64,000 nt of DNA from a bacterium (GTDB taxonomy: Bacteria; Patescibacteriota; Saccharimonadia; Saccharimonadales; JAUPVS01): NCBI GenBank assembly GCA_029780855.1, contig JAKOXV010000003.1, positions 162,357-226,356 on the forward strand, given 5' to 3'. The notes under the pieces were generated by a model, which searched no databases, was not told where the DNA came from, and saw nothing but the letters and a program-made list of their open reading frames with translations. The position numbers were made by a program, and so were the translations under genes. Positions 2,660-5,841 of this stretch are shown here, piece after piece; the stretch's first letter is position 1; each line of letters starts with the position of its first letter.

Positions 2660-3511
2660 CTATCTATTTTTTACGGTCAGGGTGGTGCAGCGTATGTAAC
2701 CGCCACCTTTGGCGAGCTCTGAAATCTGAGGAGTGACGGTTTTGAGCCCTTTTGCTTCTATGGCAGCGCGTAACTTGGGAGCGTGAGCACTCATAACTAC
2801 CGTTTCACCCGTGGACACGAGGTTGCAGGCGAACCCTTTGGTAGCCTCCTGGTAGCTGACCTCTATTGTATCGATATCTACCGAGCGGATTTTTGCTTGG
2901 CTTTCTGGCGTGAAGGCTTCTGGGCACCAGGCGATGAGGTTAGGGGTGAGCACGGAGAGTGCCAAATCTATATCGTAAAAAAAGCTATCCGGCCAGCCGG
3001 TAACGGTATTGACGAGCGGTTTGCCCGATTGGTCGGTGTAGGGAACCGTTTCTAGACCAATAACGGTGAACCCAAGGTGTTTAGCTAGGAAATCATGCAT
3101 GCGTTTATCGGTGCGGTAGGTGGTGCCACAAAACAGCAGGTCACCACAGGGCAAGGCATCGCCTTGGCCACTGAAACGATACGGAGCTTCAATGACCTCC
3201 AAATCGAGGTTTTCGAGCGTTTGTTTGGCATAGGGCTGTTCGGCTTGCCGCTTATTGGGGAGTGAGGACAACACCGCAACGCCGTTACGGCACAGGCCCC
3301 AGTTGGCAGTGTAGACGCCGTCTTGACAGTCTTTGGGCGCCTCCACCTGCTTTACGGTTACGCCTGCATTCATCAGGGCAGTGCGAATGGCGGCATGCTC
3401 TTGATTGGCCTTTTCGCTATCGATCGCCACGGATTCATCCATGTAGGGGTTAATGGCAAATTCGTCACTAAAGTATTGTGCACTGGACATCAGCACCGTT
3501 TGGTTAATCAT
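2660..3511 (-). CDS. guanidino-group modifying enzyme fold protein (DDAH / amidinotransferase / arginine-deiminase superfamily)
   Basis: C-terminal GGGYIRCTTL matches the catalytic GGGxxxC[MT] cysteine motif of the superfamily. At 283 aa it is closer to DDAH size than to an ADI of about 410 aa. Confidence 0.6.
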   Translation of the reverse strand: MINQTVLMSSAQYFSDEFAINPYMDESVAIDSEKANQEHAAIRTALMNAGVTVKQVEAPKDCQDGVYTANWGLCRNGVAVLSSLPNKRQAEQPYAKQTLENLDLEVIEAPYRFSGQGDALPCGDLLFCGTTYRTDKRMHDFLAKHLGFTVIGLETVPYTDQSGKPLVNTVTGWPDSFFYDIDLALSVLTPNLIAWCPEAFTPESQAKIRSVDIDTIEVSYQEATKGFACNLVSTGETVVMSAHAPKLRAAIEAKGLKTVTPQISELAKGGGYIRCTTLTVKNR

Positions 3512-3530
3512 TGGTTGGTATTATACAAAA

Positions 3531-3550
3531 AAACCGCCGATTGGGGCGGG
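3531..3550 (-). terminator. candidate intrinsic terminator for the GC-rich minus-strand gene
   Basis: ccgcc-gattgg-ggcgg hairpin, preceded on the plus strand by an A-run (a T-run on the minus strand). Confidence 0.4.
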
Positions 3551-3720
3551 GAATAACGAGGCAATTTGTGGGAGGTTGGGGCTTGGAAATGGTTATGTAT
3601 GCGCGAAAGAATGGAGCGAAGTGGCTCTAAAACATTCTCTGGCTAACCAGATCCAAGCCCGGAACCGGGACGGGGTTCTCGACGTCGTTGTCGAGAAACC
3701 GCCGTCCGGCTGTCCGGGAA

Positions 3721-4104
3721 CTACCCGCGGTTGAAGGGGTCGTGCGACGCCTCGATGACCTCCAAGGGGTTGTAGGCCATGGCCGAGAAGACGTCGTGCC
3801 TGCTGGTGATCAGCCGGTCGAGGTCCTCGTCGCTGAGGCTGGAGAGGTGCGTGTTGACCTCATCGATCCAGCGGCCGGCGGAGGCGTTCGGGTTCTTGAC
3901 CTCGGGGTCGAACACGAGCTCGACTCGGGCGTTCTCGGCCTGGCTGTTGACGACCAGGACGATGCCCTCGATGCCTTCGGCGATGTTGCTGTACAGCATC
4001 TTCATCATCTCCGTGGGGATCTGATCGGACCAGATCCGCACTCGTGCTGCGCCCTTCATGCCAGGTGCTGACCCGGCGTGGTGAACCAGAACGGATTCCA
4101 GCAT
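3721..4104 (-). CDS. hypothetical protein in a high-GC segment, about 127 aa counted from MLESVLVHH; the ORF track gives 3721..4173 with an AT-rich N-terminal extension
   Basis: Third codon positions are almost all G/C, a high-GC codon pattern unlike the rest of the window. A GC-type hairpin GTTCTCGAC/GTCGAGAA lies just downstream at about 3676-3700. No family is recognised. Confidence 0.55.
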   Translation of the reverse strand: MLESVLVHHAGSAPGMKGAARVRIWSDQIPTEMMKMLYSNIAEGIEGIVLVVNSQAENARVELVFDPEVKNPNASAGRWIDEVNTHLSSLSDEDLDRLITSRHDVFSAMAYNPLEVIEASHDPFNRG

Positions 4105-4225
4105 AGCGATACCTCTTGTAGGTAGTTCCATTAGGGACTTTTTTACGATACTATCTTTGACAAAGAGTGTCAATCATTTCATTACTTGATTATTTGTCAA
4201 ATCTTCGGTATACTTTTGGGTTGCA

Positions 4226-4813
4226 ATGCCAGAGAGAGACCCATCATTTTCTTCCGATCTTCCAGAGGGCTTTGAGCCCGATTTTTATGTTGCGGAGATC
4301 GAGCGATACACCCAGCACCAGCCGGCGGTGGCTTTTTTGGTGGAACAACTTTCTGCAGCCGAGGAATTAGACGCCTCACTTAAGCGTGGTGACCCTGCGC
4401 AACCCTATCCTCTTGAGCGTCGTTTCGTGGTTTTTTCCGGCGGAAACGAGGCATTTCCGTTTACCCATAAGCGTATCTCTTATGTGCCAAAAAAAGGTGC
4501 CGGCTATAAAAATCTCGAGGGAATCATGATCCGATACGCCGTTACCCCCAAAGAAAAGGGCGGTGATGGCTCCGTAAATAACCGAATAACGATTTCATTT
4601 GGGATTGCTGGGGGTATTACAGCTAACTTTTACCTTGGCGAAACAGAGTACGAACCATTTACCGATGCCAGCGAATTGCGTATCGAAAACGGCGAGCTAC
4701 TTGGTGTTGCACGCCCGCAACATCAATCCCCTCTCAACTTCATGGAACTACAGGGCGTTCTACAGAACTGTGATCAAGAGCTGCAGAGTAACGAAACCCC
4801 TCGTGCCGAATAG
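4226..4813 (+). CDS. hypothetical protein, 195 aa
   Basis: ORF with normal GC for this window, sitting between the two GC-rich segments. No recognisable motif. Confidence 0.5.
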   Translation: MPERDPSFSSDLPEGFEPDFYVAEIERYTQHQPAVAFLVEQLSAAEELDASLKRGDPAQPYPLERRFVVFSGGNEAFPFTHKRISYVPKKGAGYKNLEGIMIRYAVTPKEKGGDGSVNNRITISFGIAGGITANFYLGETEYEPFTDASELRIENGELLGVARPQHQSPLNFMELQGVLQNCDQELQSNETPRAE

Positions 4814-4971
4814 CTCGCCGTCAACATTTTGAAAATTGCTAAAAAATGGTATACAATGGCTCCAATTTAAGCGGGGCATTTAAACGGCCTGGTTTGAAGG
4901 TTACATGATTTTTGCGGTTCGAGCACTGAAGTGTTCACCTCATAAATCAGCACCTTGAGATTGTGAGTTAG

Positions 4972-5025
4972 CCATTGGAAGCGATGAGCACCGAATAAAT
5001 TTACGGTGTTGCTCGCTTCCAATGG
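4972..5025. other. long imperfect inverted repeat / stem-loop (13 bp perfect arms CCATTGGAAGCGA and TCGCTTCCAATGG, inner imperfect pairing, AT-rich loop)
   Basis: Read directly from sequence in a 280-nt non-coding stretch upstream of the GC-rich small ORF. Confidence 0.5.
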
Positions 5026-5094
5026 GGGGAGTGCAGTAACAGAGCACGTGGAAACTACACACAGCAAAGGAGCGATTCGGTAAGTCTGTACGTC

Positions 5095-5307
5095 TTGAGG
5101 ACATTTGGCAAACATTTTGCCAAAGCAAGTCAGGAGAACAGGTTGAAGAAGCGTCTCACCGACAAGGACATCCGCACCAACGCCGACCCGGCCAAGAAGA
5201 ACCGGAAGCGCGTCACCGCCGTCCACCGTCACCGCCGCGAGCACCGCGAGGCGCAGGCCATGCGCCAGTACCGCGGTCTCACCATCGGCCTGGCGGCGGC
5301 CAGCTGA
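5095..5307 (+). CDS. small very basic protein encoded in a second high-GC segment (TTG start as listed; the GC-rich part starts near 5143)
   Basis: GC3 is close to saturation from about 5143 to 5307 (KKRLTDKDIRTNADPAKKNRKRVTAVHRHRREHREAQAMRQYRGLTIGLAAAS). Coding is likely but the product is unknown and the start is uncertain. Confidence 0.4.
   Translation: MRTFGKHFAKASQENRLKKRLTDKDIRTNADPAKKNRKRVTAVHRHRREHREAQAMRQYRGLTIGLAAAS
5105..5123. promoter_or_regulatory. perfect palindrome TTGGCAAA-cat-TTTGCCAA, operator-like
   Basis: 8-bp arms with a 3-bp spacer, read from sequence. It sits at the 5' end of the small GC-rich ORF. Confidence 0.35.
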
Positions 5308-5467
5308 GGTTCGGGGTGCGGCGTGCACGAGTGTGTTGCTCTCAAGGGGGAAAGCAAACCTCGTGCACGCCGGCCCCAACGCCATCCAATTCTCCACGTC
5401 ACGCACTCATACTCACAATCTCATTTTTACTTTCGCATCCGCGGACCGATCGTCGGTCCGTTTTTTG

Positions 5468-5497
5468 TTGACAAAAACCCGAACCACTCGGTATATT
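5468..5497 (+). promoter_or_regulatory. sigma-70-type promoter of groES-groEL (TTGACA, 18 nt, TATATT)
   Basis: Near-consensus -35 and -10 hexamers, immediately upstream of CIRCE. Confidence 0.6.
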
Positions 5498-5506
5498 TTT
5501 GTGCAG

Positions 5507-5533
5507 TTAGCACTCTCGGCTTGAAAGTGCTAA
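5507..5533 (+). promoter_or_regulatory. CIRCE operator (HrcA binding site) TTAGCACTC-N9-AAGTGCTAA
   Basis: Matches the CIRCE consensus TTAGCACTC-N9-GAGTGCTAA at 8 of 9 positions in the right arm. It lies between the promoter and groES. Confidence 0.8.
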
Positions 5534-5574
5534 CCGACTCTTATACAATGACAAGCACAGAAAGAGGAGGATAT

Positions 5575-5841
5575 ATGTCGGCACCAATCAATCCGCTATC
5601 AGACTACGTTGTTGCGCAGGAAGAAAAGGCGCAAACCAAAACCGCAAGCGGTCTCTATTTACCAGATAACGCTCAAGAAAAGCCTAAGACGGCTAAAATC
5701 GTAGCCGTTGGCAAGAAGGTTACGGAACTTAAGGTAGGCGAAAAGATTATTTACAAAAGTTACAGCACTACCGAGGTGAAAGTAGCGAACGAAACCTACA
5801 TTTTAGTAAAAGAAGAAGACGTCCTAGCGACCGTTAAATAG
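5575..5841 (+). CDS. groES: co-chaperonin GroES (10 kDa)
   Basis: The 88-aa product MSAPINPLSDYVVAQEEKAQTKTASGLYLPD...VKEEDVLATVK has GroES length and motifs. RBS AGGAGG lies upstream. The ORF-track N-terminal extension is rejected. Confidence 0.93.
   Translation: MSAPINPLSDYVVAQEEKAQTKTASGLYLPDNAQEKPKTAKIVAVGKKVTELKVGEKIIYKSYSTTEVKVANETYILVKEEDVLATVK

Follow-up and report, generated by a model that had tools for sequence, protein, structure and literature searches.

The window, a 64-kb stretch of a soil Saccharimonadales (Saccharibacteria) genome obtained by metagenome assembly from one sample, shows two segments with extreme GC content at third codon positions (GC3), and both fall inside one 2-kb gap between a dimethylargininase-like gene, named DDAH here, and groES. 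The first segment is hg127, a small gene adjacent to its partner gene orf195. The second contains an ORF of 54 codons, small54. Its unit covers about 650 bp (4814-5467) and lies after orf195 and ahead of the groES promoter. The genes and features of this region are:

2660-3511, minus strand: dimethylargininase-like gene (DDAH), the island border opposite groES.
3525-3719, minus strand: structured 3' element and terminator downstream of hg127 (fold z -7.8), conserved.
3721-4104, minus strand: hg127, conserved small gene and first GC-rich segment (GC3.90).
4226-4813, plus strand: orf195, acidic 195-aa protein (pI 4.8), conserved partner of hg127, with normal-to-low GC3.
4829-4857, plus strand: predicted sigma-70-like promoter, TTGAAA-17-TACAAT, 15 nt past the orf195 stop (10/12 matches in a consensus scan).
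4860-5142, plus strand: structured leader of about 280 nt and normal GC (RNA fold z -5.2), which holds a 22-bp hairpin at 4972-5025 (inverted repeat I1).
4956-4968, plus strand: left arm of a perfect 13-nt inverted repeat (TGAGATTGTGAGT), pairing with 5411-5423.
5085-5142, plus strand: predicted hairpin pairing the Shine-Dalgarno sequence, UCUU 5093-5096 with AGGA 5132-5135.
5131-5388, plus strand: entire GC-rich patch, made up of the ribosome-binding site, the ORF and the 3' hairpin, from the codon-by-codon view and the GC profile.
5132-5136, plus strand: Shine-Dalgarno sequence AGGAG, 6 nt upstream of the TTG at 5143, read from the sequence.
5143-5307, plus strand: small54, ORF of 54 codons with a TTG start and a TGA stop, encoding a basic peptide.
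5314-5377, plus strand: GC-rich hairpin with 18-nt arms and no T-run, right after the small54 stop (inverted repeat I2, fold z -4.0).
5411-5423, plus strand: right arm of the 13-nt inverted repeat, pairing with 4956-4968.
5441-5467, plus strand: intrinsic terminator with a 9-bp stem and a T-run, which ends the unit right before the groES -35 box.
5468-5841, plus strand: context, with the groES promoter TTGACA-18-TATATT, the CIRCE operator (5507-5533) and groES (5575-5841).

The ORF of small54 (5143-5307) shows a GC content of 0.69, with 0.655, 0.491 and 0.927 at first, second and third codon positions (GC1, GC2 and GC3), and the 48 nt preceding it (5095-5142) show 0.44. Among 165-bp stretches of the 64-kb window, the GC maximum starts at 5159 (0.727, versus a mean of 0.4825 and a standard deviation of 0.049), and values above 0.68 are reached solely at 5133-5400. 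Read codon by codon, 55 of the 58 codons between 5131 and 5304 end in G or C, with three exceptions; at least 51 of 55 third positions would be G or C with a probability of 2e-5 if the base GC is 0.69, and of 1.5e-12 if it is 0.48. Background GC3, taken from 66 long ORFs of the window, has a mean of 0.50 and a standard deviation of 0.06. Small54 exceeds the genome background in GC3 (.93 vs.48) by more than the 0.2 set for the island class described below, with the shift beginning at the start region, and a phase-GC scan of the 64 kb shows just two strong segments, 3682-4065 and 5118-5351. The GC3 calculation confirms the compositional deviation and the coding-type periodicity that the first-pass annotation had reported (GC.69 and GC3.93, versus.48 and.50). 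The sequence and translation of the ORF are as described there, and the gene at 4226-4813, which it had placed between both pieces as one of normal GC, has a GC3 of 0.47.

The start of the ORF, called unclear before, is probably not at 5095: the TTG at this position falls within a hairpin and lacks a ribosome-binding site, and the TTG at 5143 is located six nt behind AGGAG. Position 5307, regarded before as the end of a high-GC insert, is the end of the ORF, and the GC-rich patch runs on through the hairpin to about 5388. The GC shift begins at the translation start and not at an arbitrary point, the frame is unbroken over all 58 GC3-rich codons, and GC1 is higher than GC2, which resembles real protein-coding composition. 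In the reading tentatively preferred below, the GC-rich stretch is a complete lineage-specific mini-gene and not a random scrap. An improbable alternative is a non-functional relic, an ORF no longer made into protein and left over from turnover at a recombination hotspot, whose gene-like signals are fortuitous or decaying. Small54 is an orphan of a single genome in a region of rapid gene turnover, its start is TTG, its ribosome-binding site is predicted to be sequestered, and the gene caller of public collections chose an antisense ORF of 172 aa over it, all of which fits a relic. However, the intact GC3-rich frame, the correct spacing of AGGAG, the coding-like composition of first and second positions and the predicted promoter and terminator of the unit argue against decay, and native mutation pressure should erode GC3.

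The predicted transcript would run from the sigma-70-like promoter (4829-4857) to the intrinsic terminator (5441-5467). This terminator had already been placed ahead of the groES promoter, where a stem at 5441-5461 and a T-run are found, followed by TTGACA at 5468. Along the putative transcript, the order would be the 280-nt leader, the base-paired AGGAG/TTG (5132/5143), the 54 codons, the GC-rich hairpin and a 13-nt clamp between 5' and 3' regions. The fold of 5080-5150 has a dG of -21.4 kcal/mol (z -3.3), and translation of small54 may be gated by opening of the leader structure. The 13-nt repeat, for which 0.04 matches are expected by chance in 64 kb with one mismatch allowed on both strands, forms the stem that closes region 4940-5440 in its MFE fold and its centroid fold alike (z -6.5). 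Neither the whole unit, at gathering score, nor its leader (4860-5142) matches a covariance model of Rfam, and the leader has no relative in 80 related loci. A consensus scan of 4814-5470 shows no promoter-like site on the minus strand, and no tRNA, mobility gene, target duplication or flanking direct repeats were found near small54. The 3' hairpin was considered as an integron attC site and rejected, its GTT and AAC ends being in the wrong order as judged by eye.

Two further readings of the unit start from these structures. In the first, the 13-nt repeats (4956-4968 and 5411-5423) are DNA sites, and the 468-bp segment that they bound is either a MITE-like mobile element or a cassette whose inversion turns the ORF round with respect to a fixed promoter at 4829. 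The repeat is perfect and improbable by chance, it encloses exactly both big hairpins and the ORF, and the promoter is outside the enclosed segment. Nevertheless, this reading is quite unlikely: no target-site duplication is present, no other copies exist in the 64 kb or in the 80 loci, the adjacent ORFs (2660-3511, 3721-4104, 4226-4810 and 5095-5304) have no Pfam recombinase match, both available assemblies show a single orientation, and the predicted RNA closing stem would fully explain the repeat. In the second, the unit works chiefly as a structured RNA, non-coding or regulatory, that happens to contain an ORF. The predicted structure is very strong (z -5.2, -6.5 and -4.0) and the promoter and terminator are discrete, but RNA structure alone cannot produce three-base periodicity together with a coincident open frame, and the lack of an Rfam family match and of relatives in the 80 related loci also speaks against this reading, which is very unlikely.

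The small54 peptide has a pI of 11.7, a net charge of +11 and a GRAVY of -1.29, without any hydrophobic stretch and with a low hydrophobic moment. A single-sequence AlphaFold2 model shows mainly one long helix (pLDDT 75). The product would be a soluble helical peptide, which may bind nucleic acid or an acidic partner.

Small54 has no match in Pfam, NCBIfam, PHROGs or PADLOC, nor among PDB sequences. No homologue was found by a full HMMER search of 1.84 billion protein representatives, by a word-indexed search of 5.8 billion protein clusters, by translated searches of phages and plasmids, or by scans of metagenome and viral contigs. The antisense ORF of 179 aa, used as a proxy query, recovered itself only, and when the unit was compared by tblastx and nhmmer with the 80 loci and the remainder of the window, nothing above noise emerged. 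The only HMMER hit, a marginal likeness of 19-25 residues to the ankyrin repeats of P0001, was judged to be due to chance, and no Pfam Ank match appears at E values up to 1. Descent from the basic C-terminal tail of some island protein, with small54 as what is left of it, was dismissed, the similarity being undetectable. The suggestion that the ORF is a fragment of a larger actinobacterial gene is not upheld: a homologue is found nowhere in the databases searched, and the patch starts at a proper ribosome-binding site and TTG.

Only one genome carries the unit, and nhmmer and tblastn did not detect it in the 80 loci. In four related Saccharimonadales genomes whose neighbouring genes are the same (L007, L015, L010 and L076) the plus-strand gene at the orf195 position ends 90-125 nt before groES and the unit is missing, so that by presence and absence in related genomes, a check proposed by the first-pass annotation, the second piece is a lineage-specific addition. 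An assembly artefact, formed by chimeric reads from a co-occurring high-GC organism, might be suspected in a metagenome assembly from one sample. The Logan assembly of run SRR15686344 is, however, 100% identical over 10,813 bp, and a chimera made by one assembler is therefore unlikely. In addition, the patch of about 258 bp has native sequence on either side, a ribosome-binding site marks its beginning and a hairpin its end, and the neighbouring GC3-rich gene recurs in MAGs of other studies, which makes an artefact extremely improbable.

That neighbouring gene, hg127, has homologues at the same position in L007 and L015, beside orf195 homologues, with identities of 23-34%, and the pairing of hg127 and orf195 is conserved in at least three lineages. 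The homologues of hg127 show a GC3 of.87 versus a background of.65 in L007, and of.71 versus.46 in L015. Across the window, L007 and L015, the GC3 of orf195 and its homologues is.47,.42 and.35, versus.90,.87 and.71 in the hg127 family. The first GC-rich piece (3721-4104), to judge from these sequence comparisons, is not a recent insert. Because hg127 is conserved with high GC3, high GC3 in this region is, alone, no evidence of foreign origin. Neither of the origins formerly proposed, decay of a larger island or two acquisitions with a high-GC donor as source, agrees with the first piece having same-position homologues whose GC3 is still high. The alternative recognised at that time, an ancestral gene of this lineage with homologues, holds for the first piece and not for small54. 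No match to hg127 was found in phages, plasmids or viral contigs, a metagenome scan with the orf195 alignment gave nothing, and the single-sequence structure model of hg127 (pLDDT 43) is too poor for a fold search. The 3' element of hg127 shows compensatory changes in 8 of 33 predicted pairs, and its covariance model matches eight loci besides the window below an E value of 1e-4 and three more with weaker scores; Rfam has no family for it.

High GC3 is not restricted to these two genes. Island small genes with GC3 of.65-.94 are present in at least 11 related genomes, and over the 80 loci the 1.3 kb upstream of groES are enriched in segments of anomalous GC3. The GC3-enriched small-gene cassettes of the DDAH-groES island are an operational class defined in this analysis. 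In 13 island small genes from 11 genomes, mean GC1, GC2 and GC3 are.579,.415 and.786, versus.581,.397 and.470 in native genes, and the fraction of Ala, Gly, Pro and Arg equals the native value (.273). GC3 is raised with native GC1, GC2 and amino acids, a pattern not expected from a high-GC proteome. At four-fold sites C is preferred over G in small54 and in the island small genes (.78 and.62, respectively), versus.51 in native genes.

Small54 shares some characters with this class and differs in others. It is located in the DDAH-groES gap, and both small54 and hg127 have a GC-rich 3' hairpin followed by a T-run terminator. It is encoded on the plus strand and has 54 aa, whereas members of the class are on the minus strand and have 110-180 aa. 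Its GC1 and GC2, measured on 54 codons, are.65 and.49, beside class means of.58 and.415. No sequence similarity was detected between small54 and any island small gene. The conserved two-stem (P1/P2) 3' element was looked for after small54 with covariance model R1, which has no match at 5305-5470, and the 3' flank of small54 is unranked in a position-weight-matrix scan built from the 13 island genes. The base of the small54 hairpin and the hg127 3' element share GGTTC(N)GGG...GCCCCAAC. The global alignment of the two flanks is weak (z 2.0, with 37 of 1000 shuffles reaching the score). A copy of the hg127-type 3' element in the small54 3' flank was set aside, since neither the covariance model nor local alignment or the matrix scan lends it support; weak motifs of the same genome remain.

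Two general causes of high GC3 were set aside. GC-biased gene conversion at a recombination hotspot is not supported, since orf195, the partner gene at that hotspot, shows a GC3 no higher than background. Codon optimisation for high expression is likewise not supported, because groEL has a GC3 of.46 and the genome is almost without codon bias.

The reading tentatively preferred here is that small54 is a lineage-specific small gene that shares the local third-position GC enrichment. An autonomous unit of about 650 bp (4814-5467) would have been added into the hypervariable DDAH-groES gap, and the near-saturated GC3 of small54 would be due to a force confined to ORFs and their synonymous sites, so far unexplained, which would act likewise on the island small genes; it would not be due to an actinobacterial origin. 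Small54 may thus not be borrowed actinobacterial DNA, given that nearby small genes in relatives share its third-position oddity.

Its close rival, possible although doubtful, is a recent horizontal capture. A fragment of about 258 bp (5131-5388), with a small gene, its ribosome-binding site and a GC-rich terminator hairpin, would have come from a high-GC bacterium, plausibly the actinobacterial host, and entered by natural transformation and illegitimate recombination at a permissive intergenic hotspot downstream of an existing native promoter and leader. GC1, GC2 and GC3 of.65,.49 and.93 and a fraction of Ala, Gly, Pro and Arg of.39, higher than the native.273, fit a genome of about 70% GC, but the fraction of Phe, Tyr, Met, Ile, Asn and Lys (.22) is native-like. 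This donor-like composition is not decisive, because small54 has only 54 codons, of which 10 encode Arg. The borders of the patch are sharp on either side, the unit is unique to this lineage, and the hairpin past the small54 stop lacks a T-run, as an actinobacterial terminator would, being a GC-rich hairpin. The 5' border, however, lies no more than 12 nt from the start codon, a closeness hardly to be expected of a random fragment, and the start region contains AGG and TTG, atypical codons in high-GC coding sequence. A blastn 'distant' search against plasmids and phages gave only short chance matches, mostly to Streptomyces, Clavibacter and mycobacteriophages, which reflect compositional likeness and offer capture no more than that, and the protein, metagenome, viral, plasmid and phage searches described above provide no donor homologue. 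Mobility genes, tRNA and target duplications are also lacking nearby, and the adjoining hg127, demonstrably no recent import, makes GC3 undiagnostic here. Saccharibacteria in culture grow on Actinobacteria and possess natural competence (PMC10633639), but the TM7x study reports that a strong signal of host-derived genes is lacking (PMC7427843).

A wider proposal, possible and put forward with reserve, concerns the whole slot. In Saccharimonadales, the slot upstream of groESL would hold fast-evolving small genes with G+C raised at synonymous sites only (GC3 up to about.9, versus.4-.5) and native amino acids, mostly with a conserved and undescribed structured RNA element, and small54 would be a minimal, reoriented member. 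The enrichment would be maintained, for example by selection on mRNA or codon choice, and would not be a foreign trace. In the extreme version, island codon usage may be tuned to the high-GC actinobacterial host.

In a genome of moderate GC, a short patch of high GC is usually taken as foreign DNA; in an epibiont of Actinobacteria it would count as direct evidence, rarely available, that genes pass from the host to its symbiont. Hg127 shows that a gene of these genomes can carry extreme GC3 as a heritable trait of its own, with normal GC1 and GC2, which undermines transfer calls based only on composition in CPR genomes. It also raises the question of what keeps synonymous-site GC in a few hypervariable genes beside a heat-shock operon. 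If small54 is expressed, the poorly known small proteome of Saccharibacteria gains a micro-protein that is an orphan, is highly basic and has an elaborate leader; if it is host-derived, it is a datable marker of host association.

Several known systems resemble parts of this locus. As in the genomic-island and amelioration framework of Lawrence and Ochman, a sharp local deviation of GC and GC3, missing in sister lineages, is found in a variable intergenic hotspot; unlike it, small54 has no donor homologue, mobility genes, tRNA or direct repeats, and its deviation starts at the start codon. Amelioration theory does not predict a neighbour such as hg127, which keeps its deviation across lineages at 23-34% identity with native GC1 and GC2. 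The DDAH-groES slot resembles replacement (hypervariable) islands in holding non-homologous small genes in each lineage, with a gap that spans 122 bp to 4.8 kb among about 36 loci. It differs from them in that its cassettes share a structured 3' element and synonymous-site GC enrichment, although small54 has no recognisable copy of the element and is in reversed orientation. The small54 unit resembles type I toxin mRNAs (hok/sok-like and AapA1/IsoA1-like) in its ORF of fewer than 60 codons and, by prediction, in a 5' UTR that is long and structured, in the sequestering of its Shine-Dalgarno sequence and in long-range 5'/3' pairing around the message. Its peptide, by contrast, lacks a transmembrane segment and is hydrophilic and strongly basic, an antisense RNA promoter was not found, and there is no sequence relation. 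SgrS/SgrT and SR1/SR1P are dual-function small RNAs that also encode a small protein. The small54 unit shows neither conservation nor any indication of a base-pairing target, unlike these RNAs, which it resembles in its predicted discrete and highly structured transcript of about 600 nt with one tiny ORF. Finally, bL34, bS21 and the actinobacterial bS22 are very small basic ribosomal or nucleoid-associated proteins. In contrast to these, small54 is an orphan of one genome and not a core protein, without homology by HMMER or in Pfam, NCBIfam or PDB; in common with them, it has about 50 aa, a pI near 12 and a helical or extended chain rich in Arg and Lys, and is presumed to bind nucleic acid.

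In the window, the dimethylargininase-like gene DDAH (2660-3511, minus strand) and groES are separated by a gap that contains small54, a 54-codon ORF (5143-5307, plus strand). The compositional anomaly marks an orphan mini-gene that looks complete and occupies a hypervariable slot in a single MAG. groES shows 70-78% identity to groES of soil, bog and sludge Candidatus Saccharibacteria (Saccharimonadales) MAGs. Among the 80 fetched related loci (L002-L081), about 36 have DDAH on the minus strand upstream of groES, and the gap between the two genes ranges from 122 bp to 4.8 kb, which defines a hypervariable slot between two conserved genes. This slot is a replacement hotspot beside the heat-shock operon. 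The small genes found in it differ between Saccharimonadales genomes and are mutually unrecognisable, and L002 and L026 show two in tandem. The gap in the window has the following distribution:

Features of the DDAH-groES gap (3512-5574), in order
3525-3719, minus: structured element, first in the gap
3721-4104, minus: hg127, the first GC-rich piece, second in the gap
4157-4173: TTGACA-N5-TGTCAA palindrome, in the promoter region between hg127 and orf195
4226-4813, plus: orf195
4814-5467: small-ORF unit, between orf195 and the groES promoter
4829-4857, plus: predicted sigma-70-like site TTGAAA-17-TACAAT, 15 nt past the orf195 stop codon
Leader of 280 nt: normal GC, fold z -5.2 versus shuffled sequence
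4956-4968 and 5411-5423: arms of a perfect 13-nt inverted repeat
4972-5025: 22-bp hairpin within the leader
5132-5136, plus: AGGAG, 6 nt upstream of TTG 5143
5305-5307, plus: TGA stop codon of small54
5314-5377: GC-rich hairpin, 18-nt arms, no T-run, 3' of the small54 stop
5441-5467: canonical terminator, after the right arm of the inverted repeat
Last, after the small-ORF unit: groES promoter, CIRCE operator and groESL

At four related loci (L007, L015, L010 and L076) the orf195 position is taken by a plus-strand gene that stops 90-125 nt before groES, versus 762 nt between orf195 and groES in the window, so the small-ORF unit is a lineage-specific addition; the second GC-rich segment is absent at these four loci.

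The GC content of the 64-kb window is 48.3%. small54 shows a GC of 0.69 (GC1/GC2/GC3 of 0.655/0.491/0.927) and the 48 nt preceding it 0.44. The most GC-rich 165-bp stretch of the 64 kb begins at 5159 (0.727, versus a mean of 0.4825, sd 0.049), and a codon-by-codon reading of 5131-5304 finds G or C at the third position in 55 of 58 codons. The probability of at least 51 G/C third positions in 55 is 2e-5 even with a base GC of 0.69, and the background GC3 of the window is 0.50 (sd 0.06, n=66 long ORFs). A phase-specific GC scan of the window returns only two strong segments, 3682-4065 and 5118-5351. The first-pass annotation, which described two small high-GC pieces flanking a normal gene, was right about the anomaly: it is statistically extreme on calculation, the GC3 of 3721-4104 is 0.90 and that of 4226-4813 is 0.47, and the terminator (5441-5461 plus T-run) and groES promoter (5468) lie where it placed them. 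A GC3 far above GC1, with GC1 above GC2, and an open frame in exactly the same phase constitute a protein-coding signature. RNA structure does not yield such phase-specific composition, and an RNA-only function of the unit is very improbable; that small54 is a non-functional relic is unlikely. An assembly artefact is barely credible, the SRR15686344 Logan assembly being 100% identical to the window locus across 10.8 kb.

The AGGAG upstream of TTG 5143 is base-paired with UCUU (5093-5096) in a predicted hairpin of -21.4 kcal/mol (z -3.3). The start proposed earlier, TTG 5095, sits inside this hairpin and has no ribosome-binding site of its own, so TTG 5143 is preferred. Only 0.04 matches to the 13-mer of the inverted repeat are expected by chance in the window, and in the folds predicted for 4940-5440 (z -6.5), MFE and centroid alike, these arms pair as the closing stem; a mobile or invertible DNA-level element bounded by these repeats is quite improbable. 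The promoter region of the unit (4829-4859, TTGAAAatTGCTAAaaaatggTATACAATG) is similar to the sequence that covers the right half of CIRCE before groES (5521-5550, TTGAAAgTGCTAAccgactctTATACAATG), which could reflect a partial duplication at unit insertion or merely a common promoter consensus. Immediately upstream of the unit promoter, a 16-nt inverted repeat (4689-4704/4806-4821, 88% complementary) spans the final 120 nt of orf195 and its stop, followed by TTTT, forming an unusual structure with a long loop where this gene ends. groES, groEL and small54 show clear GGAGG-type sites, unlike DDAH and orf195, which have a TATAAT-like box about 9-12 nt ahead of the ATG and no Shine-Dalgarno sequence (3511-3535 and 4205-4228), suggesting leaderless mRNAs.

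small54 matches no family in Pfam, NCBIfam, PHROGs or PADLOC, and neither word-indexed protein search nor full HMMER against 1.84 billion representatives found a homologue. The sole marginal HMMER match is a 19-25-residue likeness to ankyrin repeats: residues 14-36 (5182-5250, IRTNADPAKKNRKRVTAVHRHRR) are similar to the loop, and the beginning of the helix, of ankyrin repeats in P0001, a protein of 1596 aa (E 1.3e-4 for the whole library, summing the repeats). The Pfam Ank models do not match small54, and this likeness is probably due to chance. PDB yielded no relative, nor did phages and plasmids searched in translation or scans of metagenome and viral contigs, and blastn gave only short compositional matches (DNA of Streptomyces, Clavibacter and mycobacteriophage). 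The unit matches no Rfam family, no relative of it turned up at DNA level or in translation in the 80 loci or the rest of the window, and the antisense 179-aa ORF annotated by gene callers over small54 was likewise seen in this genome alone. Across positions 1-64000, tRNA genes are absent and no Rfam family reaches the gathering threshold.

hg127 and orf195 form a divergent pair which recurs at the same position in two loci:

Homologues of hg127 and orf195
L007: 6782-7192 and 7312-7878
L015: 6763-7209 and 7296-7910

The hg127 homologues are just 23-34% identical, so synonymous sites must be saturated, and GC3 is nevertheless raised (window/L007/L015.90/.87/.71; genome backgrounds.48/.65/.46). 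orf195 and its homologues are at or under background (.47/.42/.35), and the module thus shows opposite codon-composition deviations in its two genes in three lineages. hg127 is ancestral and evolves fast, with its synonymous-site anomaly maintained; it is not a recent insert, and the earlier reading of it as a foreign one was wrong. The divergent promoter region contains the perfect palindrome TTGACA-AAGAG-TGTCAA (4157-4173), likely an operator or overlapping divergent -35 boxes; conservation of the surrounding 110 nt in L007 (nhmmer E 4.5e-5) greatly exceeds that of the proteins on either side.

Elsewhere, the same slot contains non-homologous small minus-strand genes whose GC3 is raised too (families L076/L071, L026/L002/L011 and L010/L078, plus L009 and L012). 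Thirteen such island genes from 11 genomes have a mean GC1/GC2/GC3 of.579/.415/.786, versus.581/.397/.470 in native genes, and their Ala+Gly+Pro+Arg fraction equals the native one (.273). The shift is at synonymous sites only, a pattern that imports from a high-GC proteome would not show. Across the 80 loci, the 1.3 kb upstream of groES is enriched in GC3-anomalous segments. Just downstream of groEL, L007 10170-10415 shows a third-position GC of 0.98 in its best 40-codon stretch, and the anomaly may not be confined to the upstream side of the groESL operon. As causes of the raised GC3, GC-biased gene conversion is unlikely, since the partner gene orf195 lies in that hotspot too and has a low GC3, and so is expression-linked codon optimisation, since groEL has a GC3 of.46 and the genome is almost without codon bias.

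Downstream of the island genes lies a conserved structured element with two stems, about 190 nt long and usually accompanied by a terminator. Its position downstream of non-homologous small genes was checked in the window, L007, L015, L010, L076, L078, L071 and L011. It contains a GC-rich hairpin (P1, CCGGACGG...CCGTCCGG), a long-range stem enclosing a variable hairpin (P2, GGGCTTGG...CCAAGCCC) and a ...TT.CCAC tail before the usual terminator, with a fold z of -7.8 and compensatory changes in 8 of the 33 predicted pairs. With a covariance model made from five copies, the element is also found in L081, L078, L056 (twice), L003, L071 and L011, directly 3' of the small island gene wherever one was called (L078, L071, L011):

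Copies of the 3' element
Window: 3525-3719, minus
L007: 6585-6773
L015: 6578-6757
L010: 6550-6740
L076: 6439-6612
L081: 6620-6823
L078: 6426-6596
L003: 7147-7334
L071: 6495-6679
L056: 4543-4754 and 5133-5349
L011: 7159-7350 and 6444-6683

This element matches no Rfam family and could represent a 3' UTR, a small RNA or a motif at cassette boundaries that has yet to be described.

small54 shares with island genes the slot, an extreme GC3 that sets in where translation starts, a GC-rich hairpin on the 3' side with a T-run terminator after it, a preference for C over G at 4-fold sites (.78, versus.62 in island and.51 in native genes) and, with many of their products, a basic composition. It differs in strand, in size (54 versus 110-180 aa) and in lacking sequence similarity to them, and its GC1, GC2 and Ala+Gly+Pro+Arg fraction all exceed island-gene values. 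Its 3' flank is recognised neither by the covariance model nor by a position-weight-matrix scan; the base of its hairpin and the hg127 element of the same genome have GGTTC(N)GGG...GCCCCAAC in common, and global alignment of the two gives a z of only 2.0. Given these differences, membership of small54 in the island class is not established. The slightly favoured, though tentative, reading is that its GC3 comes from the same local synonymous-site phenomenon, by which we infer a common cause and not homology. Capture from a high-GC donor, as the two acquisitions or decayed island proposed earlier would imply, is only a little less likely: composition at each of the three codon positions is compatible with a donor of about 70% GC, the hairpin downstream of the stop lacks a T-run, only one lineage carries the unit, and Saccharibacteria have natural competence and live on Actinobacteria (PMC10633639), whereas very large searches found no donor homologue, the compositional boundary lies at most 12 nt from the start codon, a single 2-kb slot holds the two GC3 outliers of the 64 kb, the other (hg127) being demonstrably not foreign, and for TM7x one study reported that host-derived genes leave no strong signal (PMC7427843). 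A foreign origin of small54 is unproven. What is unexpected in this slot across Saccharimonadales is the synonymous-site-only GC enrichment and the undescribed 3' RNA element, both testable.

The predicted 54-aa peptide has a pI of 11.7, a net charge of +11 and a GRAVY of -1.29, and sequence analysis finds no amphipathic or transmembrane segment. Single-sequence AlphaFold2 gives essentially one long helix (pLDDT 75), and such a soluble, helical +11 peptide would most plausibly bind nucleic acid or an acidic protein; hg127 and orf195 products are both acidic (pI 4.8). Sequestration of the ribosome-binding site, together with the 5'/3' clamp, suggests that small54 would stay untranslated until the leader is remodelled. 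Since the peptide lacks hydrophobic character and a consensus scan turned up no antisense promoter, small54 is not a member of the type I toxin or dual-function small RNA families, but the architecture of its unit, with the sequestered site and the clamp, is reminiscent of both type I toxin mRNAs and dual-function small RNAs.
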